Part shown: in pieces, positions 24,301 through 46,769 of the stretch
Layout: each line of letters starts with the position of its first letter
Numbering within the stretch: the stretch's first letter is position 1
DNA from: Defluviitaleaceae bacterium
GTDB lineage: Bacteria > Bacillota > Clostridia > Lachnospirales > WQUN01
DNA length: 64,000 bases
Reading direction: 5' to 3'
NCBI GenBank assembly: GCA_009779755.1
Contig: WRDO01000007.1
Location: forward strand, 21,165 to 85,164
Made by a program: the position numbers and the translations under genes
The notes under the pieces: model-generated
What the model saw: the letters and a program-made list of their open reading frames with translations, nothing else
Told to the model about the DNA's origin: nothing
Databases searched by the model: none

Positions 24301-24890
24301 TTACGGGCAACCCCATTTTCGACGCCCTGACCGACCGCGCCAACCCCCGCATCCTCTTTATGCCCAACTACCGCAAACACCTCTACCTCGGCGAAAATAA
24401 ATTTAACCCCGACTTCCGCGACTCCGAATACGCCACCCGCATCGGTGACATACTACTGGAAGAACGTTTCCTGGACGTAGCCGACGCCTTAGGCATCTCC
24501 GTAGATTTCGCCCCCCACGCCAAGACCTTCCTCCACCTCTCCGACCTCGAGCGCGACGACTCCGTAAAAGTCATTCCCCCCGCCTACCCCCGCCTGCCCC
24601 TGTGCCAAGACGCCGCCCTCCTCATCACCGACACCCTGCCCGCCCACGGCTTCGCTTACCTCAACAAACCCGTAATCTACTTCAACTTCGACCCCGACAA
24701 CACCCCCCCCCGCGACAACGCAGCCTTCGGCGAATCCACAAGCGACTTCGAGGAACTGATCGATCTGCTCGTGTACTATATGCAAAATAACTTTACGATT
24801 AAACCCGAATACAAAACCGTAGCCGACGGTTTCTTCCCCTACCGGGACGGGGAAAGCTGCAGGAGGGTTTATGAGGCAACACAATGCTAA
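21366..24890 (+). CDS. bifunctional GT2 glycosyltransferase / TagF-like CDP-glycerol glycerophosphotransferase with about 390-aa unknown N-domain
   Basis: ATG 21366 preferred over TTG 21327 (GGGAG upstream). GT2 core VSCIIPVYNAAPYINEAVESI..LINDGSTDDS..LFLDADD. C-terminal TagB/TagF-like region (ILFMPNYRKH.., FAPHAKTF.., ITDTLPAHGFAYLNKPVIYF). Confidence 0.8.
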   Translation: MNLFIRSTIDLSLLTPTLESITSTIYNTVIEDEPTRDDEIIDNKAIDDVFTPEPSFSFMLPVTVLLDVYPYELVPDSFAQYLSLRERGVTFTHVPTFSFTQMQEPCIVIEAGQRLNDDVIRYIGYFFEDSDCPLVFIPVLGEGESLPEAIQNLPPGGIVHDFAPLLSYNFICAAKDPSLLDAGALQAAVRLGSYGILNRVTAEGATIHRTLTARDLYDLPDTNLIEEFILNQATQPIETGDEDIGLLLPHISPALFGLNPPEVRILSVTNHYEMAEITGEYITDAPDREIKPSASTQIIFHETTPLNQTVRDKLIPRFSFRCRLALEEAETSVTFKLGRKTIRTEMIALPEDTRNYAFTFKKNALQINKIAMRPHYKVSCIIPVYNAAPYINEAVESIIAQSLDFFPYIQIVLINDGSTDDSPTLCEALAQKYPYNIVYALQANKGASAARNAGRRYAMGEYILFLDADDLLDVNLIQAAVNALDNKPNANYDFVAFPIKMFGTDNLSPPELTHRFTDNGAINIKTEPDKVQFSASGVLMRAEAIKGIFFDEELTAAEDAEFIARAFADKQQYLACKDAFYHYRVTPGKYGRNLGQYGGTALFADRLAAFSMEKYGAVTPYIQHVILRDITRAFIPETDTDETEAALIETAVRQLTDALRHVDDTAINNARKLTPHQREYLLRLKQGEEAEAPAINKIHMDYMLEQNGNVIIRGYIYLPDYDGINLTARCEATDTEYTARLTADTRVSVDVFGLNQCMARAFTFTIPTPSEEILLSFTADVSFPPGFVLIGKESVAHASDNDIRIAPLSRESIAKTLQNTPSAKKEITDEYINLYPLLNATRLWLFVSPNPLEKNATAHFYDYCASLTDGIDCRLVVSADEVPLHPEGTAIALGSKTHATMSLFAEKIIISDAAEIKRLRDMTGLTVGTFLYLPNQALTEADRPALAALNGLPITAVALLSPHETDFLPAGLLRDAAFVTGNPIFDALTDRANPRILFMPNYRKHLYLGENKFNPDFRDSEYATRIGDILLEERFLDVADALGISVDFAPHAKTFLHLSDLERDDSVKVIPPAYPRLPLCQDAALLITDTLPAHGFAYLNKPVIYFNFDPDNTPPRDNAAFGESTSDFEELIDLLVYYMQNNFTIKPEYKTVADGFFPYRDGESCRRVYEATQC

Positions 24891-26101
24891 AACCCTTAAC
24901 GGATGAACAACTTTTAGGATTATTAAACGATATCGAATCCGATAAATCGGAACGCAAGCAATCCATGCGGGGAAACACCCCCGACACCGCCCGTCAAGCC
25001 ATTTGCGCATTTGCAAATGATATGTCCGGCCACAATGAAGCGGGTGTTTTATTTATCGGAGCCGACGATAACGGCAACCCATCCGGCGAACCGATAACGG
25101 ATGAACTCATCAGGGTATTAGCTGACATAAAAACGGACGGTAAGATATTGCCGTTACCCGTAATGACGGTAGAAAAGCGTGTTTTAAAAGGTTCGGATAT
25201 GGCGATTATAACCGTAATGCCTTCGGACATGCCCCCCGTAAAATATAACGGGCGTATATGGATACGTACGGGGTCACGCAGGGTTATAGCGGGCGAACAG
25301 GACGAACGGATATTAAACGAAAAACGCAGGCACAAAAATTTACCCTACGATTTGTACCCGGTACCTACCGCAACAATCACCGACTTATCCCGGGCTTTAT
25401 TTGAAGACATATTTTTACCCGGCGCATTCGCGCCTGAAATATTGGATGAAAACAACCGAACTTATGAAGAACGTTTGGCATCATGTATGATGATTGTATC
25501 ACCCGAGGACACGACACCCACAGTACACGGTCTGCTTGCGATAGGAAAAACCCCGCAAACGCATATACCCGGCGCATATATTCAATTCATACGTATGGAT
25601 GGGAATGAACTGTCAAATGATGTAATCGACGAGGCAACCATATCCGGCCCCATCCCTAACATGATGACCCACATAAATCACGTAATTTCCGCCCACAACC
25701 GTCGCGCCTTCGACATAACCTCCGCACCAACACATAAGATAACGGAAACGTATCCCATATCCGCAATCCAACAAATTATTTATAATGCCGTTATGCACAG
25801 GACATACGAACGCACCAACGCACCCGTCCACTTCCATTGGTACGACGATCGTATCGAAATCATCAGCCCGGGCGGGCTATACGGTAACGTAACAATTGAC
25901 ACCTTGGGCAAACCCGGCGTAGTGGACTACCGAAACCCTAACCTCGCCGCAACCATGAAAACATATGGCCTCGTGCAACGCTTTGGCCGCGGGATAACCA
26001 TCACCCGGGACGAAATGAAGAAAAACGGCAACCCCGCACCGGAGTTCCATGCCGATCAAGGTCTTGTAAAATGCACCATGAGGAAAGGAAGTGCGTTATG
26101 A
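24884..26101 (+). CDS. AlbA_2 (Schlafen-like) DNA-binding / ATPase-like regulator family protein
   Basis: 405-aa ORF; N-terminal ESDKSERKQSM..AICAFANDMSGHNEAGVLFIGADDNG (AlbA_2 pattern); C-terminal RNPNLAATMKTYGLVQRFGRGI typical of this regulator family; overlaps both neighbours (ATGCTAA, ATGA). Confidence 0.65.
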   Translation: MLKPLTDEQLLGLLNDIESDKSERKQSMRGNTPDTARQAICAFANDMSGHNEAGVLFIGADDNGNPSGEPITDELIRVLADIKTDGKILPLPVMTVEKRVLKGSDMAIITVMPSDMPPVKYNGRIWIRTGSRRVIAGEQDERILNEKRRHKNLPYDLYPVPTATITDLSRALFEDIFLPGAFAPEILDENNRTYEERLASCMMIVSPEDTTPTVHGLLAIGKTPQTHIPGAYIQFIRMDGNELSNDVIDEATISGPIPNMMTHINHVISAHNRRAFDITSAPTHKITETYPISAIQQIIYNAVMHRTYERTNAPVHFHWYDDRIEIISPGGLYGNVTIDTLGKPGVVDYRNPNLAATMKTYGLVQRFGRGITITRDEMKKNGNPAPEFHADQGLVKCTMRKGSAL

Positions 26102-33249: not shown

Positions 33250-35796
33250 ATGAATAAAGTTATAATCGTATCAAAAAACCCCGATGTTTCTAAATATAAC
33301 ACGATACAAGAAGCTATTACGGCAATTCCGGTTGAAAAACAAAAAAAATATGTTATCTTCATAAAACCCGGAATTTATAATGAAAAATTACATATAAACA
33401 AATCCAATATTATTCTATATGGTGAAGACCCGGCCAATACGATTATAAAATATGATTGTTCCCGCTCTATTTTAAAATCAAACACAAGTAATACAGCTAC
33501 TTGTTTAATAGAAGCGGATGATATACAAATTGTCAATATTACTTTTGAAAATACAGCCGGTCAATATCGTGATGTAGGACAAGCTGTAGCCGTGGCTACC
33601 CAAGGAGACAGAATTTCATTTTATAACTGTCGTTTTTTAGCGTATACCAACACATTATTCGCAGGTCTTGGCAATTTTAAACCGGAAGATGACGGTCCAT
33701 TAAACGCCGGCAGGCAGTATTATTATAAATGTTTTATTACCGGTGACTTTAATATTATATTAGGTACGGCAATTTGTTTTTTTGAAGAATGTAAAATCGA
33801 ATGCCGGGAAGACTCGACTTACTTTGCATGTGTTATAGCAATTAATGCTGCTTCACGGTATAACAAAAATGGATATGTTTTTTATAAATGCTATATAAAC
33901 GGACATGCTAAAATAAAAACTTGGCTTGGGCAGCCGTTTTCCAATCATTCATCAATTGCATATATAAAATGTAATATGGAAAACATAGCTTCCGAAGGTT
34001 GGACACAAAGGTTTCTGCCTGAATTATGTTTTAAAAACACTGCCCGCTTTATAGAATTCGGCACCCGTGGCGTTGATATGTCACAACGAACAGAATGGTC
34101 AAAAACATTGCCCGAAGATGGTAATTTGTTCCTTTATACAAAGGCTAATGTATTATTAGGTTGGTCGCCGAATTATTCAAGGTTACCTTTACGTACCAAC
34201 CTTAAAATATATGCCCGGCAATCCTTGAATGCCTTGCAAGGATTTTTTCGCAAGACAACACCGGATGGAATGTTATCAGAGATTTCCAATTCTAAAACAG
34301 TTATATATTCGCTTCCGCATCCCGCATTTATACGTAAAGCCTTGGTTCATAAATTTGCTTACCACCCCGAAAGTGAAATAATCATCTTAACAGATAACAG
34401 TTTTTCTTTATTTCCTGACGGCGGTAAATTGCCGAATGGCGTTAAGGAAGTTATAAAAATAGATTATTACATTGCAAGTAAATTAGATGATGAAGTTGAA
34501 GCTGAAAATGTTATTGTTAAATATATTGAACATCTATTTATAGAAAATAATATTGATATATCATGTGTCAATGAAATTTATTGCATGAATGATATGGTGG
34601 ACCCTGTAGTTGTATATTTGGAAAATAAAAAAATATATTATAATTGCATTGAATTTTCAGCAAATCAATTTTTTATTTTTGATACATATACATGGAGTGA
34701 ATTAACCAAGCGAACACAAGTTCATTATAATATCCAAAAAAAATATAAAATATTTTCATCAACCGGTAATTATTGCAAAAAAAGATTATTATGTGAAGAT
34801 ACTACGAAAAAAATTGAAACAGAAATCGAAGAAGTCGTATTTGATTTTTGCGAAGCTCTAAACATCATTAATCAACGTGATAAAAATGTATTGTTAGATT
34901 TTTATGGTGAAATAAAATTACCAAATGATTACAAATATATAACACTGGTAGCACTTCCAAATTTCACTACAATCTCGAAGTTCCAAAACTTATCTGTTAA
35001 AGACATAATCTTAAGCCATCAGCGATTAATTGATTTTTATATAGGAGATGTTAATAATATTGCCTTGAAACCACATCCTTGTATTATTACGGAATACAAT
35101 GATTTACCATCCTATTTTAATAACGCTCCCGTTATAGACGCAAATATACCTACAGAGCTTTTTCCTATTTATAACATAAAAGTAAAACTTGCGATTGCAG
35201 TAAAAACAACCGCTTTAGATATTTTGAAGCGACAGGATACCGATACACAAGTGGATGTAATCGGAATCCGTTATTTTAAAATGTTTCAATTATTAAATCA
35301 GTTATATTTTGCTTTCAGCCTTATAAAGTTCATTCCTAGCAATAACAAAAATGTTTTTGTATATAATATAGATATCGGTCAAGTAAGTAAATTTGCAAGT
35401 TACGCCTTTAATGATTTAAACCTTACCATAAAAAATACAGATATTTTACTTAAATCTTGTGATTCGATTGCTTTAATAAACGGCATTGAAGAACTCCCAC
35501 CGAATAATATAAACGATTTTTTTAATAATATAAAAGACTTACCGGTCGTGTTTGTTTTGGCACAAAAAAGAATAACGTTTAACTTAAACGATTATTTAGA
35601 AATAAAAATTAATAAAGAAATAATAAATATAAATACGTTGGAACCAATGGGTGATGAATTTGTATATATTATATGTAATAACGAGGAAACGTTGAATGCG
35701 TTGGAAAATCAAAAAATAATAAAAAGTTTAAAATATACAGGTGTAAATTTAAATTCAGAAATAGCAAGATTTAAAAAAGAAGGAATTGATTTATAG
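33250..35796 (+). CDS. pectinesterase-fold (CE8-like, catalytic residues substituted) domain fused to about 540-aa unknown domain
   Basis: 848-aa ORF; first about 310 aa collinear with pectin methylesterase motifs (GIYNE, QAVAV, RQYYYKCFITG, FIEFGTRG..RTEWS); no signal peptide; C-terminal part has an ALKPHP motif. Confidence 0.6.
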   Translation: MNKVIIVSKNPDVSKYNTIQEAITAIPVEKQKKYVIFIKPGIYNEKLHINKSNIILYGEDPANTIIKYDCSRSILKSNTSNTATCLIEADDIQIVNITFENTAGQYRDVGQAVAVATQGDRISFYNCRFLAYTNTLFAGLGNFKPEDDGPLNAGRQYYYKCFITGDFNIILGTAICFFEECKIECREDSTYFACVIAINAASRYNKNGYVFYKCYINGHAKIKTWLGQPFSNHSSIAYIKCNMENIASEGWTQRFLPELCFKNTARFIEFGTRGVDMSQRTEWSKTLPEDGNLFLYTKANVLLGWSPNYSRLPLRTNLKIYARQSLNALQGFFRKTTPDGMLSEISNSKTVIYSLPHPAFIRKALVHKFAYHPESEIIILTDNSFSLFPDGGKLPNGVKEVIKIDYYIASKLDDEVEAENVIVKYIEHLFIENNIDISCVNEIYCMNDMVDPVVVYLENKKIYYNCIEFSANQFFIFDTYTWSELTKRTQVHYNIQKKYKIFSSTGNYCKKRLLCEDTTKKIETEIEEVVFDFCEALNIINQRDKNVLLDFYGEIKLPNDYKYITLVALPNFTTISKFQNLSVKDIILSHQRLIDFYIGDVNNIALKPHPCIITEYNDLPSYFNNAPVIDANIPTELFPIYNIKVKLAIAVKTTALDILKRQDTDTQVDVIGIRYFKMFQLLNQLYFAFSLIKFIPSNNKNVFVYNIDIGQVSKFASYAFNDLNLTIKNTDILLKSCDSIALINGIEELPPNNINDFFNNIKDLPVVFVLAQKRITFNLNDYLEIKINKEIININTLEPMGDEFVYIICNNEETLNALENQKIIKSLKYTGVNLNSEIARFKKEGIDL

Positions 35797-40768: not shown

Positions 40769-41509
40769 ATGAAAATTATAGCCGTCATACCTGCAAGATA
40801 CGCTTCCAGCCGTTTTCCCGGTAAACCGCTTGCTGACATACATGGTAAACCCATGATTTGGTGGGTATACAACCAGATAAAAAAAGCAACCCGCTTAAAC
40901 AGTATAATCGTGGCAACCGATGATAAAAGGATATTGGCAACTTGCGAAGATTTAAATATAACTGTATGTATGACAAATATTAACCATAACACACCTACAT
41001 CAAGGACACATGAAGTATCGACCAGATACGAAGCTGATTTATATATAATGATTAATGGTGATGAACCTATGATAGATCCAAAAGTGATCGATCATATAAT
41101 TCCAAAAAGTTTACAAAAAAAACCTTATGTGGCAAGTGCGGCGACAACCATTTCAAACGCAACCGATGTAATTGACCCCACAAATTTAAAAGTTGTACTT
41201 TCGAATGATAATAAATTATTATATATTTCACGCGCACCCATTCCATACCCAAAGGGAACGAATGAATATACGTATAAAAAATTCGTTGGTATTCAAGCAT
41301 TAAATAAATCTGCGCTTGACTTTTATGTAAATAAACCCAAAAGTCCCCTTGAATGGATTGAAGAATCTGATTTATTGCGGTTTATTGAAAATGGAATTGA
41401 AGTAGACTTTATAAATGTTAACTATAACAACCTATCTATTGATACACCAAAGGATTTGGAAAAAATAAAAAAAATTATAAGAAAAGAGGAAGATCATGAA
41501 GGAATATAA
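40769..41509 (+). CDS. kdsB: 3-deoxy-manno-octulosonate cytidylyltransferase (CMP-Kdo synthetase)
   Basis: 246-aa ORF; MKIIAVIPARYASSRFPGKPLADIHGKPMIWWVY is a textbook KdsB N-terminus. Confidence 0.85.
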   Translation: MKIIAVIPARYASSRFPGKPLADIHGKPMIWWVYNQIKKATRLNSIIVATDDKRILATCEDLNITVCMTNINHNTPTSRTHEVSTRYEADLYIMINGDEPMIDPKVIDHIIPKSLQKKPYVASAATTISNATDVIDPTNLKVVLSNDNKLLYISRAPIPYPKGTNEYTYKKFVGIQALNKSALDFYVNKPKSPLEWIEESDLLRFIENGIEVDFINVNYNNLSIDTPKDLEKIKKIIRKEEDHEGI

Positions 41510-41660
41510 TTTAAAGATATTAGCAAACGTGATGAACAGCGCTATATTTTCAGATATCCTCGATGATTATAATGTGGATTATCTAATAAGAAGCCTTAAA
41601 CCGAACATTTTTAATTCAAAAATATTTGGGCGTGCAAACATTTTGAAACTACGCGCATGA
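41496..41660 (+). pseudogene. truncated RraA-like (aldolase/regulator family) gene fragment
   Basis: 54-codon ORF overlapping the kdsB end; NSAIFSDILDDYNVD..KIFGRANILKL resembles the first third of RraA-family proteins, then stops; followed by about 230 nt of non-coding filler of different composition. Confidence 0.3.
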
Positions 41661-41887
41661 CCCGTTTACAGGAAACCTCCGAAACCACCATATCCATGAT
41701 ATTCCTGTGCATGAACATCAAGCGCCGGCTGAGGGAACTTTTTTTTACATTTGGGTTTGGGCGTTATTCGGTAGTATGTTTGTGGATAATTCAATAAATA
41801 AGGCGTTCATTGCCAAAAATATGGTTTGTTCGTAAACCCTAATTTAATAATATCTTATTGGTATTTTTCGCAGAAAGGTATGATTTT

Positions 41888-42577
41888 ATGAAAGTGGTAA
41901 TATTAGGAAAGGCTAGTTCCGTCAGAATTAAAAATAAAAATTATCGACCATTCTATAATGGTGAATCATTAATGGACATACACATTAAAAAATTGATCAA
42001 TGTATTACAACCTGATGATATATACCTTTCATGCGAGGATGAAACGTTCCGGAGCGTTGCTCAAAATTGGAAAATTAATTTCATCCTCCGTGATGAAAGG
42101 TATACAAGATTGACAACCAGCAACGTCGATGTCGTGCATTATGTGTGTAAGGATGTCCCGGGCAACGGGGATATATTATGGACAACTCCTGTGGAGCCGT
42201 TGTTCGATGAATATACAAACGTTTTAGAATGTTGGGAAAGGATAGATAAAACCAAACATGATTCGCTTAACGTTGTATATCCTCAAAAAAGGTTTATTTT
42301 GGATCAAAATTATAATCCAATTGGTTTCGGCTTCGGTCATTGGCACAAATATTCACAAGATATACCACCCATATACCAAGTGAGTTGGTCAACGGCTATT
42401 TTAAGCAGGGCTTGTATAGAAAAGGTCAGTTATATGATTGGTGCGCGTCCCTTTTGGTACGATTGTTATTCAACCGTAGTAGATATCGATACGGAGGATG
42501 ATTGGGAGATTGCACAATTACTCTATTCTAAAAAAATCAAGGAAGGTTACACGAATGGAAATCATAGAAATTTATAA
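41888..42577 (+). CDS. acylneuraminate (NeuA-like) cytidylyltransferase family protein
   Basis: Start moved to ATG 41888; MKVVILGKASSVRIKNKNYRPFYNGESLMD resembles the CMP-sugar synthetase N-terminus (..R.p.KN...l.G..L..); divergent. Confidence 0.5.
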   Translation: MKVVILGKASSVRIKNKNYRPFYNGESLMDIHIKKLINVLQPDDIYLSCEDETFRSVAQNWKINFILRDERYTRLTTSNVDVVHYVCKDVPGNGDILWTTPVEPLFDEYTNVLECWERIDKTKHDSLNVVYPQKRFILDQNYNPIGFGFGHWHKYSQDIPPIYQVSWSTAILSRACIEKVSYMIGARPFWYDCYSTVVDIDTEDDWEIAQLLYSKKIKEGYTNGNHRNL

Positions 42578-43019
42578 AGATCTTCTACGCCAAGCCCATG
42601 TAATAATCCCAAAAAAAGCGGAAATAAAACTATATCACCATTATGGCGCTGAAAACGTCCGTGAAACAGGTGCGTTATTCATAACGGTCGTCCAACATGA
42701 TTATTGTAAATATATCGTATGTATGACTCCCGGGCAAACATACCCAATGCATTATCACCGAATCAAGGACGAATCATTTTATGTTTTACACGGCGATTTA
42801 TCCGTTGTGCTTGAAGATGAATTTCATTTAATAACACCGGGTGAAATTCTTAACGTACCCCGTCGATTTACGCACGGCTTTTCAACCAAAACCGGATGCG
42901 TATTTGAGGAACTTTCGACAGCCTATTTATTAAACGATTCGGTTTATCAGGATAAATATATAAGAAACATATCCGGTAGCGATAAAATGACTTATATATC
43001 CATTCATGAAAATAAATAA
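42555..43019 (+). CDS. cupin-fold sugar isomerase (D-lyxose/D-mannose isomerase-like)
   Basis: Start moved to ATG 42555; exact cupin motif 1 GQTYPMHYHRIKDESFYVLHG (G-x5-HxH-x4-E-x6-G) and motif 2-like GEILNVPRRFTH. Confidence 0.55.
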   Translation: MEIIEIYKDLLRQAHVIIPKKAEIKLYHHYGAENVRETGALFITVVQHDYCKYIVCMTPGQTYPMHYHRIKDESFYVLHGDLSVVLEDEFHLITPGEILNVPRRFTHGFSTKTGCVFEELSTAYLLNDSVYQDKYIRNISGSDKMTYISIHENK

Positions 43020-43039
43020 ATATAAAAGGATGTAGGAAA

Positions 43040-43867
43040 ATGACAAACGTTAAATCTTTTCATATTGATGATTGTTTTGAAATCGGGAATGGGGTTTTAA
43101 CACTTATCGGCGGCCCGTGTTCCATCGAAAGTGAAGACATGTGCCTTAAAGTTGCTGCAACGGTATTGGATATTTGCAAGGAACTGGGTATAAATTACAT
43201 CTTTAAATCATCCTTTGACAAAGCCAACCGGTCATCATTAAACGCGAGCCGGGCTTTGGGTATGGAAAAGGGATTAAAAATATTAAGTAAAATAAAAAAG
43301 GAATTATCGGTTCCAATTACAACCGATGTGCACGAAGTTTGGCAATGTGCTGAAGTCGGCGAAGTGGTTGATATCATACAAATACCCGCATACTTGTGTC
43401 GGCAAACAGATTTATTAATAGCCTCGGCAAAAACGGGTAAGGCCGTAAGCGTAAAAAAAGGCCAATTTATGGCACCGCAAAACATGGACAACGCAATTAA
43501 AAAAATCACATCGGTAGGCAACCACAAGTGCATCTTAATGGAACGCGGAACATCATTTGGTTATAATAAGTTGGTGGTAGACATGCCGGGCTTGCAAATT
43601 ATGCGTGAATTCGGTTACCCCGTATTTATCGATGCCACACATTCAGTCCAAGAACCCGGCGGAAACGCAACATACACAAAGGGAAATCGTGATTTTGCAA
43701 AGCTGATTATGTATTCGGCATTAGCCGCTGGGGTTGATGGCGTTTTTGCGGAAATCCACCCCGACCCGGATAATGCCGCCTCAGATGTTGGGAGCCAATT
43801 AAAATTATCGGAAGTACGCGAAATATTAAAAAAAGCGGTGTTAATAAACGATATTGCATGGCAGTAA
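43040..43867 (+). CDS. kdsA: 3-deoxy-8-phosphooctulonate (Kdo8P) synthase
   Basis: 275-aa ORF; FKSSFDKANRSS, QIPAYLCRQTDLL, VVDMPGLQIM, IDATHSVQ and FAEIHPDPDNA are collinear with E. coli KdsA; GGPCSIES carries the Cys of the metal-dependent class. Confidence 0.9.
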   Translation: MTNVKSFHIDDCFEIGNGVLTLIGGPCSIESEDMCLKVAATVLDICKELGINYIFKSSFDKANRSSLNASRALGMEKGLKILSKIKKELSVPITTDVHEVWQCAEVGEVVDIIQIPAYLCRQTDLLIASAKTGKAVSVKKGQFMAPQNMDNAIKKITSVGNHKCILMERGTSFGYNKLVVDMPGLQIMREFGYPVFIDATHSVQEPGGNATYTKGNRDFAKLIMYSALAAGVDGVFAEIHPDPDNAASDVGSQLKLSEVREILKKAVLINDIAWQ

Positions 43868-43885
43868 CAGAACGGGAGAGATATT

Positions 43886-44386
43886 GTGATTGATCATATT
43901 GTTTTGGATGTTGACGGCACACTTACCGACGGTAAGATTATTATTTCTAACCATGGAGAAGAAATTAAAAATTTTCACGTAAGGGATGGTCAAATAATTA
44001 TTGCATTACCGAAATTAGGATACCATCTTTTAATAATAACAGGACGAACCTCTAAGATTACTGAAATAAGGGCAAATGAATTGAAAATAAATACCGTCCT
44101 GCAAGGAGTACAGAACAAAGAAAAAACGTTGAATGATTACTTTAAAATGAACTACATAACAGGTGATAGATTTGCTTATATCGGCGACGATTTGAATGAT
44201 TATTCAGCCATGAAGTTGTGCGCTTTTAAAGCCTGCCCGGCAGATGCTGTAACCGAAATCCGCGGGCTTTGCGATTACGTTTCCGTAAGGAAGGGAGGTC
44301 AAGGTGCAGTAAGGGAAATATGTGAATATTTATTACAAAAGCAGAATCAATATGAATCATTCTTGCAATTATTTAGAGCGTGCTGA
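43886..44386 (+). CDS. kdsC: Kdo8P phosphatase (HAD IIIA, KdsC family)
   Basis: GTG start; LDVDGTLTDG motif I, ITGR, GDDLNDYSAM motif III; KdsC-like length (166 aa). Confidence 0.85.
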   Translation: MIDHIVLDVDGTLTDGKIIISNHGEEIKNFHVRDGQIIIALPKLGYHLLIITGRTSKITEIRANELKINTVLQGVQNKEKTLNDYFKMNYITGDRFAYIGDDLNDYSAMKLCAFKACPADAVTEIRGLCDYVSVRKGGQGAVREICEYLLQKQNQYESFLQLFRAC

Positions 44387-44520
44387 ACACCCCAGCAAAA
44401 CCAACAAAATCAAGCAAAAACGCCAACAAATATTATAATATGGTGGACATCGCCGACCCCGTAGCGATACGGGCAATTTTTAACGGATATAAAACAGTAA
44501 TACAATAAAGGAGCAAAACA

Positions 44521-45747
44521 ATGTTAAACATCATCGGCTTAGGTTACATCGGCCTTCCTACGGCATTAATCATGGCAAGCAACGATATTCCTGTCATCGG
44601 CGTGGATAAGAATCCTTCGGTGGTTGAATCCCTTAACCGCGGCGAGGTTACTTTCGAAGAAGACGGACTTCCTGCGTTGTTTAAAAAGGCAGTGCAAGCG
44701 AACATCGTTTTCCGAACAACCCCCACCCCATCCGATATGTACATCATCGCTGTGCCTACGCCTTTTAATAAATCTACCAAGCGCATAAACCCAAGCTATG
44801 TTATCACAGCCATACGCGAGGTGTTGGCCGTGTGTAACGATAACGCCGTCATCGTAATCGAGTCCACCGTTGCCCCGGGCACCATTGACAAATTTATACG
44901 ACCGGTGGTCACCGGTGCCAACGTCCGCATCGCCCACGCACCCGAGCGGATTATCCCCGGCGATATGGTGAGGGAGCTTGTAAACAACGCCCGCATTATC
45001 GGCGCGGACGATGAAGAAACGGCACAAGAGGTAAAAAAACTATACACCGCTTTTTGTAAAGCGGAAATCGTAACCACGGATATACGATCGGCGGAGATGT
45101 CGAAGGTGGTGGAGAACACCTTCCGCGATATTAATATTGCTTTCGCCAATGAGTTGGCGAAGATTTGCCGCGCCGGCAATATGGATGTATATGAAATTAT
45201 CCGCATCGCCAACATGCACCCCCGCGTTAATATCCTGCGCCCCGGGCCGGGCGTGGGCGGGCATTGTATATCCGTTGACCCGTGGTTTTTGGTGGGGGAT
45301 TTCCCGCAGTTGTCCTTGCTTATCCACGAGGCGCGTAAGATAAACGATTCCATGCCGGTTTTTGTACTGGAGCGTATACAGGAAATCATGAAAGATGAAA
45401 ATATTATTGATATTTCCCGTATCGGTTTTTATGGGCTTACGTACAAAGAGGATGTGGATGATACGCGGGAAAGCCCGACGTTACAATTGTTTGATATCAT
45501 TACCAAATCACTGGGGCAAACACCGAAATGCTACGACCCCATGGTAAAGGAAATGATGTTTGACGCGCAATACAACGATTTTGGCGCTTTTATCCGCGAC
45601 ATTGATTTTATCGTGATCATGGTCGGGCATTCGCATTTAAAGGATAACATGGAGAAACTAAACGACAAGACCGTATTTGACACACGTTACTGCATAACCC
45701 CAAGCGATGCTGATTATCCGGTGGGTACAAAGCATTATTATTTATAA
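44521..45747 (+). CDS. wecC: UDP-N-acetyl-D-mannosamine dehydrogenase-like nucleotide-sugar dehydrogenase
   Basis: 408-aa ORF; IIGLGYIGLPTALIMA..VIGVDKN..LNRGE close to E. coli WecC as remembered; catalytic-Cys context GGHCISVDPWF; composition returns to GC-rich. Confidence 0.8.
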   Translation: MLNIIGLGYIGLPTALIMASNDIPVIGVDKNPSVVESLNRGEVTFEEDGLPALFKKAVQANIVFRTTPTPSDMYIIAVPTPFNKSTKRINPSYVITAIREVLAVCNDNAVIVIESTVAPGTIDKFIRPVVTGANVRIAHAPERIIPGDMVRELVNNARIIGADDEETAQEVKKLYTAFCKAEIVTTDIRSAEMSKVVENTFRDINIAFANELAKICRAGNMDVYEIIRIANMHPRVNILRPGPGVGGHCISVDPWFLVGDFPQLSLLIHEARKINDSMPVFVLERIQEIMKDENIIDISRIGFYGLTYKEDVDDTRESPTLQLFDIITKSLGQTPKCYDPMVKEMMFDAQYNDFGAFIRDIDFIVIMVGHSHLKDNMEKLNDKTVFDTRYCITPSDADYPVGTKHYYL

Positions 45748-45965: not shown

Positions 45966-46382
45966 TTACAAACCCTCCATAAATATCGAAGCGGTTGTTA
46001 TTAATGGGCGGTCAATTTCTACGGTTAACAAATCATTATCGCCGGTGATTAGGATATCGACATCTGCAGAAATCGCAGAATATAATATAGGTGCGTCTTT
46101 TATGTCGCGGATTGTGAACAAATAATCATTGGGTAATGGGAATGGTGTGTATTCAAGTTCAAATGGAAGTTTTTGTAAAAATGCAGAAACGTTTGCCATT
46201 TTGCTTGAAAACTTCTTTTCGACCACACGCTCAAACTCATCAATAATATAAGTTGATAAAACTAATTTGTGCCGTAAGCAAATATGTGAAAACAAATCAG
46301 TCAGAATTCGGCTTTTAAATACAGCAATGGATACTAAGATGTTTGTATCAACCATTATCCGCATTACAAGCCTCCCAAACAT
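45966..46382 (-). CDS. PIN-domain toxin
   Basis: 138-aa ORF; MVDTNILVS and ILITGDNDLL acidic motifs; start uncertain (46382, 46364 or 46355); overlaps the antitoxin gene end. Confidence 0.75.
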   Translation of the reverse strand: MFGRLVMRIMVDTNILVSIAVFKSRILTDLFSHICLRHKLVLSTYIIDEFERVVEKKFSSKMANVSAFLQKLPFELEYTPFPLPNDYLFTIRDIKDAPILYSAISADVDILITGDNDLLTVEIDRPLITTASIFMEGL

Positions 46383-46623
46383 TTTGCCTAATTTCTTTTA
46401 CCAATGCCACAACATCGGCTTCTGATTTAAGGTCAAGTTTTTCAGCTTCACCTTCAAATGCGGTTTGAAGTTCATTTATTGCAATAGTAACGGGATTAAC
46501 GATTGTATACACCCCTTCGCGCTCTATAAACGCAATTTTTCCACCTTTTTGTAAATTTAATTTTCGCATAATATTTATAGGAAGTGTAAGTTGACCTTGA
46601 TTTGATATTTTTGCAAGCTCCAT
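46348..46623 (-). CDS. AbrB/SpoVT-family antitoxin
   Basis: Start moved to ATG 46623; MELAKISNQGQLTLPINIMRKLNLQKGGKIAF swapped-hairpin motif. Confidence 0.7.
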   Translation of the reverse strand: MELAKISNQGQLTLPINIMRKLNLQKGGKIAFIEREGVYTIVNPVTIAINELQTAFEGEAEKLDLKSEADVVALVKEIRQNVWEACNADNG

Positions 46624-46769
46624 TATAATACCCCTATCTGTTTTATATTCGACTTGCACCGGTAGATAACAATAAAAAATATATATCATACCCCTTCAAG
46701 GTGAGTATAGCAAAAGAAGGGATGATAAACAATATCGAACGCGTACAAATAGGAGAAACAACAAATAAA

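Follow-up and report, generated by a model that had tools for sequence, protein, structure and literature searches.

Bacterial synthesis of 3-deoxy-D-manno-oct-2-ulosonic acid (Kdo) is a textbook pathway of four enzymes, and KdsD is regarded as the bacterial route to arabinose-5-phosphate (A5P). The window studied here, a 64,000-nucleotide (nt) stretch of contig WRDO01000007.1 from a Defluviitaleaceae bacterium (assembly GCA_009779755.1), carries five neighboring genes: kdsB, a gene for a NeuA/PseF-like cytidylyltransferase (hereafter CT-like), a gene for a 154-aa cupin, kdsA, and kdsC. The question raised by this locus is what supplies KdsA with A5P. The cassette is likely a supply of cytidine monophosphate-Kdo (CMP-Kdo) in which the cupin makes A5P in place of KdsD. 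The case for the cupin is built on the lack of another isomerase, synteny, a distribution complementary to that of KdsD, the fold and catalytic residues of the cupin, and a sister clade fused to NeuB, a phosphoenolpyruvate (PEP)-dependent sialic-acid-type synthase.

As proposed, the cassette would be a self-contained, horizontally acquired CMP-Kdo supply in a host that lacks lipopolysaccharide (LPS). The cupin would act as a divalent-metal-dependent ketol isomerase of the D-lyxose isomerase type and convert ribulose-5-phosphate to A5P. The Cys-type KdsA would join A5P with PEP to form Kdo-8-phosphate (Kdo8P), and KdsC would take off the phosphate. Kdo would then become CMP-Kdo through CT-like, the additional canonical KdsB, or both, and the CMP-sugar would be used by a transferase encoded in the same island. 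For the steps from KdsA onward, the families are assigned by scores above curated cut-offs, and the chemistry is what we infer from these families.

The cassette is laid out as follows, with coordinates counted over the whole window and all five genes on the plus strand.

40769..41509, plus strand: kdsB, canonical CMP-Kdo synthetase, 246 aa (NF009905, 259.1 bits, cut-off 255; TIGR00466, 157.7 bits, cut-off 155.2)
41510..41887, no strand: gap of 378 nt between kdsB and CT-like, non-coding by reading of the sequence
41888..42577, plus strand: CT-like, NeuA/PseF-like cytidylyltransferase, 229 aa (PF02348, 27.4 bits, cut-off 22.6; NeuA structure matches)
42555..43019, plus strand: cupin ketol isomerase, proposed A5P isomerase, 154 aa (Cupin_2, 34 bits, cut-off 27.2; structural model)
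43040..43867, plus strand: kdsA, metal-dependent (Cys-type) Kdo8P synthase, 275 aa (NF003543, 372 bits, cut-off 242; TIGR01362, 355 bits, cut-off 314)
43886..44386, plus strand: kdsC, Kdo8P phosphatase, 166 aa, GTG start (TIGR01670, 144.7 bits, cut-off 106.95)

An earlier, sequence-only reading of this DNA had named kdsB, kdsA with its Cys, kdsC, the NeuA-like cytidylyltransferase and the 154-aa cupin, and the coordinates and family scores agree with it. The genome has one copy of each cassette gene. From CT-like to kdsC the spacing is tight: CT-like and the cupin gene overlap by 23 nt, and gaps of 20 and 18 nt separate the cupin gene from kdsA and kdsA from kdsC. The cupin start at 42555 has a Shine-Dalgarno sequence, AAGGAAGG, 8 nt upstream, and TTG at 41858 is an alternative start for CT-like. 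The space between kdsB and CT-like is 378 nt in the window vs. 0-51 nt in the related loci L004-L006. It holds a locally GC-richer stretch at ~41650-41740 and may be a gene remnant or contain the promoter that serves the four genes downstream.

Isomerase genes in the host and in related cassettes

The genome that contains the window is 3.1 Mb and 97.7% complete. The lack of a SIS-domain A5P isomerase, which had been noted for the window, is true for the whole genome. KdsD/KpsF is absent genome-wide: the top match to TIGR00393 is 22.5 bits and falls on a CBS region, and the same model matched the control, Bacteroides thetaiotaomicron, at E<=1e-20. A search with SIS domain models finds two SIS open reading frames (ORFs) in the genome, one GmhA-like and one AgaS-like. 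LpxC (PF03331) and the Kdo transferase WaaA (PF04413), the pair taken as the mark of an LPS-bearing diderm, are both absent from the genome, and their controls behaved correctly. The genome-wide search for kdsD and the LPS pathway that had been suggested as a check on the cupin proposal has thus found neither. The host is LPS-less and monoderm-type. It falls in the order of the Lachnospiraceae but in a different family, a placement that comes from G370, a genome of the host's order that recurs with identical coordinates (as G624) in the family of the Lachnospiraceae genome G004.

Both in the window and in 15/15 related loci (L004-L018), the gene immediately upstream of kdsA is that of the cupin, at a distance of 7-52 nt in the 14 loci measured. 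These loci come from three phyla and include Lachnospiraceae, Oscillospiraceae/Ruminococcus, Eubacterium, Treponema, and Synergistaceae. Two architectures are found, with optional genes in brackets: type I, [KdsB]-CT-cupin-KdsA-[CT2]-[KdsC], to which the window belongs, and type II, cupin-KdsA-CT-[KdsC]. A 267-aa CT-cupin "fusion" in a related locus (P0019, L007:2745-3548) was considered as Rosetta-stone evidence and rejected. The C-terminal ~60 aa of the cytidylyltransferase and the N-terminal ~28 aa of the cupin are missing, and this in-frame join, which arose either by deletion in nature or by faulty assembly of one metagenome contig, is not counted.

KdsD is absent from 10 of the 11 named genomes with a cupin-kdsA cassette, and those 10 give only partial TIGR00393 matches of 19-39 bits. 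A single-SIS isomerase that escapes the TIGR00393 cut-off was also considered and rejected, since these matches have E >= 1e-9 and lie mostly at the CBS-domain end.

If the cupin supplies A5P, it would be expected to stand in for KdsD in any monoderm that has KdsA. A class-level sample of 399 genomes had KdsA in two, too few for a test of this, and an unbiased sample of 401 genomes was therefore taken from the family Lachnospiraceae, to which genome G004 belongs. True KdsA is found in 10 of the 401 (~2.5%). Eight of these 10 have KdsD on the kdsA contig and lack the cupin, and KdsD is within ~0.2 kb of kdsA in six, at 1.3 kb in one, and at 10 kb in one. In the remaining two, the cupin gene adjoins kdsA and KdsD is lacking. 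Among the 10 KdsA-bearing genomes, none has both genes and none has neither. Given the margins, such a perfect split would arise by chance with a probability of 1/45, by our own arithmetic and for lineages that are not independent. Every monoderm Kdo cassette thus brings an isomerase gene with it, whether for KdsD or for the cupin. The exchange is clear in G370, one of the eight KdsD-type genomes, whose operon is CT-KdsA-KdsD-KdsC vs. CT-cupin-KdsA-KdsC in the window.

This distribution bears on the proposal that A5P comes from a side activity, of the isomerase domain of GlmS or of a GmhA-like SIS protein, and that the role of the cupin lies in another step, such as epimerization or other modification of Kdo or CMP-Kdo. 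Eukaryotic glutamine:fructose-6-phosphate amidotransferases do show A5P-forming activity, and the genome has a GmhA-like SIS ORF on contig C22. However, an E. coli delta-kdsD delta-gutQ strain, which has glmS and gmhA of its own, is still auxotrophic for A5P (PMC11301363). If the cupin were a downstream modifier, it and KdsD would not be expected to exclude each other, and its catalytic residues are those of an aldose-ketose isomerase. We consider this explanation improbable. The GmhA-like ORF (C22:31221-31904) was considered as a hidden A5P isomerase and set aside, and is kept as a low-probability rival only, because it is on another contig and, by eye, in a heptose-type setting, beside a PfkB-type kinase gene and a HAD gene.

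The surrounding region (C22:25158-31904), read by eye, encodes a GH2-like glycosidase, a HAD protein, a 313-aa protein, the PfkB-type kinase, a 290-aa protein, and the GmhA-like SIS isomerase. It looks like a pathway of the heptose-phosphate type beside a glycosidase, in a by-eye reading in which the SIS ORF alone was scanned.

Family, fold and active site of the cupin

The 154-aa protein belongs to the cupin superfamily. GQTYPMHYHRIKDESFYVLHG fits motif 1, G-X5-H-X-H-X3,4-E-X6-G, and is present exactly as first quoted, the motif-2 His comes from PGEILNVPRRFTHGF, and the AlphaFold (AF2) model of the barrel has a predicted local distance difference test score (pLDDT) of 94 and a predicted template modeling score (pTM) of 0.89. 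Its score against the D-lyxose isomerase family PF07385 is 17.6, below the cut-off of 20.8. It has no SIS or CBS match and falls outside the KdsD/KpsF family (TIGR00393). Scans of family libraries found no curated family that covers it. Public annotation names its relatives "cupin domain-containing protein" or "N-acetylneuraminate synthase," and the latter label probably derives from NeuB fusions.

The relatives split into two clades. The kdsA-linked clade is free-standing, ~155-180 aa long, and joined by a long branch with 100/99 support, and its members share 47-63% identity with the cupin. Nine metagenome proteins were placed in it by their sequence alone. The second clade, at 37-46% identity, is also separate with 100/99 support. 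Its members are proteins of ~510 aa in which a divergent NeuB forms the N-terminal part and the cupin the C-terminal domain. Among 1.84 billion representative proteins there are 120 matches at E<=1e-30. Most are of fused length, and few clusters are of the KdsA-linked type.

The top full-length fold matches of the model are D-lyxose isomerases: B. subtilis YdaE (2y0o), Thermofilum TsLI (7nzo-q), and E. coli O157 Z5688 (3kmh). The match to 2y0o has TM-scores of 0.79/0.72 and a root-mean-square deviation of 1.8 Å over 164 columns. Phosphomannose isomerases of Thermococcus and L-ribose isomerases follow, and all of these are cupin aldose-ketose isomerases. A sequence profile of the cupin likewise matches 2y0o (6e-7) and the phosphomannose isomerase 7zvm (2e-6). 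In TsLI, Mn2+ is held by H75, H77, E88, and H143, E88 abstracts the proton, and K86 stabilizes the cis-enediol (PMC8378251). The corresponding residues of the cupin, H66, H68, K71, E73, and H107, are invariant in its family and align to TsLI H75, H77, K86, E88, and H143. With a full-length fold of the PF07385 type, the four Mn ligands, and the enediol-stabilizing Lys, the modelled cupin has what an aldose-ketose isomerase needs, and this activity is predicted for it.

The D-lyxose/D-mannose isomerases (2y0o, 7nzo, 3kmh; PF07385) share their fold with the cupin over its whole length (TM 0.75-0.79), together with the Mn-binding His/His/Glu/His set and a Lys two residues before the Glu. The two differ in that identity is 16-22%, the cupin is shorter, and the known D-lyxose isomerases act on free sugars in catabolism, whereas the cupin sits in a biosynthetic operon and has a sugar phosphate as its proposed substrate. 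The D-lyxose isomerase family yields aldoses of the lyxo/manno configuration at C2, and ribulose-5-phosphate would then be expected to give A5P rather than ribose-5-phosphate. In the cupin, Arg103 is invariant across the family and Arg104 in the kdsA-linked clade. Both precede the last His, 2y0o lacks an Arg at the Arg103 position, and we conjecture that this pair may bind the 5-phosphate.

Sugar phosphates are handled on this fold elsewhere. The cupin phosphomannose isomerases of Thermococcales (7zvm, 7zvy) and the cupin phosphoglucose isomerase are metal-dependent and convert a ketose phosphate to an aldose phosphate, so the chemistry proposed for the cupin is feasible on this fold. The Thermococcales enzymes match only the barrel core of the cupin (TMq ~0.52-0.56), and they lack the N-terminal helix and strands that the cupin shares with D-lyxose isomerases. 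KdsD/KpsF/GutQ (SIS plus CBS; TIGR00393) has the same reaction and operon role as is proposed for the cupin, but KdsD is a metal-independent SIS-CBS protein of ~325 aa, the cupin is a metal-binding barrel of 154 aa, and the two have no sequence or fold relationship.

The cupin could instead be a non-catalytic sugar-binding or regulatory subunit of KdsA. It is small, its gene adjoins that of the supposed partner, and its sister clade is fused to a synthase. This explanation is very improbable, because neither clade shows any variation in the four metal ligands or in the catalytic Lys, which a binding module need not keep. It also leaves the supply of A5P unexplained.

The sugar made and its activation

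KdsA carries GGPC (with Cys), KANRS, DATHSVQ, and EIHPDPDNAASD, and belongs to the metal-dependent class. KANRS, which we take to mark A5P specificity in KdsA, is kept with the four metal ligands of the Cys/His/Glu/Asp set in 14/14 cupin-linked KdsA copies. KdsC exceeds the cut-off of the subfamily model TIGR01670 and does not reach that of the E. coli-type equivalog NF007019 (147 bits vs. 208). Given the conserved motif and ligands of KdsA and the canonical KdsB and KdsC, the product is most simply Kdo.

CT-like aligns end to end with the NeuA structures 9t4z (3e-5) and 1eyr, its top PDB matches. It scores 46 bits over the full length of the PseF model, whose cut-off is 205.7, and matches no KdsB model. 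The C-terminal DIDTE and most of the N-terminal nucleotide loop are kept, with the loop Arg replaced by Lys, and QxTSP is altered. The presence of this second cytidylyltransferase had suggested that a modified Kdo or another ulosonic acid is activated, and this idea needs revision. CT-like is present in 15/15 cassettes examined, and no canonical KdsB, or only a weak match to it, is found in 7 of 11 genomes with cupin-type cassettes and in 4 of 8 KdsD-type genomes. The pattern of an ever-present CT-like and an often absent KdsB suggests that the NeuA-like enzyme is probably the CMP-Kdo synthetase of these lineages, their conserved activating enzyme, and not the sign of a second sugar. The simplest reading of the window kdsB is that it is an extra, accessory part of the cassette. 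It is also possible that CT-like and KdsB activate different forms of the sugar.

A separate observation concerns G003, a Treponema sp. metagenome-assembled genome (MAG; locus L010). It has no KdsD and at least 5 full-length KdsB-like genes on several contigs, three of them above the cut-off. It also has a cupin cassette with two CT-like genes, and its set of ulosonate cytidylyltransferases is unusually large.

The cytidylyltransferases also enter into a different account of the cassette, in which the cupin isomerizes another sugar phosphate (xylulose-5-phosphate to lyxose-5-phosphate, or fructose-6-phosphate to mannose-6-phosphate) and a Kdo isomer or other 3-deoxy-ulosonic acid is the product of the KdsA homologue and the substrate of the NeuA-like enzyme. 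In its favor, the nearest solved relatives of the cupin are D-lyxose/D-mannose and phosphomannose isomerases, most cassettes have a non-canonical cytidylyltransferase instead of KdsB, and a divergent NeuB is the fusion partner in the sister clade. This account is nonetheless unlikely. KdsA exceeds the curated cut-offs for Kdo8P synthase and has KANRS in every copy, the window also has canonical KdsB and KdsC, and the cupin is exchangeable with the A5P-specific KdsD in otherwise similar cassettes. In the KdsD-type cassette of G370, the cytidylyltransferase is also NeuA/PseF-like, so an odd cytidylyltransferase does not imply an odd sugar. Canonical KdsB is found nowhere in that genome. The G370 enzyme aligns with CT-like over its full length (23% identity, E 3e-7) vs. 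its N-terminal half only with KdsB.

Several points weigh against the cupin as the A5P isomerase of a Kdo cassette. The identity of its substrate comes from context only, the D-lyxose isomerases that it resembles act on unphosphorylated sugars, and the phosphate site is conjectural. One diderm Synergistaceae genome holds both the cupin and KdsD (299 bits). Most comparison genomes are MAGs whose completeness is not established, which makes single absences of KdsD weak when taken alone, and the genomes are related and the cassette spreads horizontally, so the two-by-two counts are not independent events. The two cytidylyltransferases of the window are also left unexplained by the model. With these points included, the suggestion that the cupin may be a non-orthologous replacement of KdsD has strong support from synteny, from the cupin-or-KdsD split, and from a modelled ketol isomerase fold with its residues.

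The island, the NeuB-fused relatives and wider meaning

The cassette forms the right-hand end of a low-GC island of 30-44% G+C at ~26-48 kb, with flanks of ~53% G+C. Other genomes of the order do not share this island, which fits horizontal acquisition. Two further features of the island are listed here.

33250..35796, plus strand: 848-aa protein, outside the supply module, whose C-terminal part is a candidate CMP-sugar user (weak similarity)
44458..44473, plus strand: terminator-like hairpin and T-run 3' of kdsC (consensus scan, a pattern match only)

The position of the terminator-like hairpin coincides with the end of the island. No member of KpsC/KpsS (PF05159) is found in the genome, and with WaaA absent as well, the island's transferase is not assigned to a known Kdo transferase family. 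The 848-aa protein has a pectinesterase fold, and its residues 349-699 show a weak match (21.6% identity, E 8e-7) to a 730-aa protein encoded directly upstream of kdsB in the Acetatifactor cassettes L004 (5234-7426) and L009. This C-terminal part is a candidate CMP-sugar transferase, offered as a lead only.

Near the edges of the island, a protein with Schlafen/AlbA_2 and HATPase_c_4 domains is encoded at 24884-26101, exactly at the left boundary. At 45966-46689 on the minus strand, two genes for proteins of 138 and 113 aa look like a PIN-type toxin and an AbrB/SpoVT-type antitoxin. To their left is a nucleotide-sugar dehydrogenase gene (44521-45747), and to their right the G+C content climbs back to 53% near 48 kb.

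Kdo in a monoderm had been called unusual, which is right only in part. KdsA is found in ~2.5% of the sampled Lachnospiraceae genomes, and a published precedent exists. Bacillus coahuilensis m2-6 is a monoderm Firmicute with a low-GC, horizontally acquired Kdo island that carries canonical kdsD and kpsC (PMC4744853). The window differs from it in having the cupin in a genome that lacks KpsC/S and WaaA. Kdo islands in monoderms thus have precedent, and a cupin in the place of KdsD has none. Literature searches gave no paper that connects cupins with A5P isomerase, with KdsA, or with NeuB, and the SugarBase preprint makes no mention of Kdo. The Kdo pathway is known, and the enzyme class proposed here for its first step appears to be new.

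The NeuB-cupin fusions extend the comparison. Their cupin is homologous to that of the window and keeps the same catalytic residues, and its partner is a divergent NeuB instead of KdsA. The NeuB part scores 130 bits against a cut-off of 400 bits, and a fused relative scores 25.8 bits against PF07385 (cut-off 20.8). The fusion is found in the genomes of at least 67 species (L019-L087, e.g., L065:158-1690), mostly Alphaproteobacteria. Other carriers are Verrucomicrobiota, the candidate phyla radiation (CPR), Clostridia including Lachnospiraceae, Megasphaera, and Desulfofustis. Adjacency to KdsA in one clade and fusion to NeuB in the other mean that the cupin is coupled to two different enzymes that condense PEP with an aldose.

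The recurrent neighbors of the fusion gene encode a PseF-like cytidylyltransferase, a HAD phosphatase, a GFO/IDH/MocA oxidoreductase, and a methyltransferase. In Clostridia and CPR, they encode a thiamine pyrophosphate enzyme, a DegT aminotransferase, and a radical SAM protein.

A broader proposal, toward which the evidence tips slightly, is that the cupin founds a new and structurally unrelated class of A5P isomerase (EC 5.3.1.13) and that its family, the NeuB-fused domain included, is one of dedicated ketol isomerases whose product, an aldose or aldose phosphate, passes directly to PEP-dependent ulosonic-acid synthases.

If the cupin does make A5P, the cassette would clearly exemplify non-orthologous gene displacement, and genome-based pathway calls, which now score cupin cassettes as incomplete, would be put right. 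A scattered minority of the monoderms in gut and rumen (Lachnospiraceae, Ruminococcus), together with Treponema, would then count as producers of Kdo or a close relative. The cupin would also provide the first functional handle on the widespread NeuB-cupin fusion family. If the broader proposal is true as well, this family would represent an unrecognized first step of several bacterial sugar-acid pathways.

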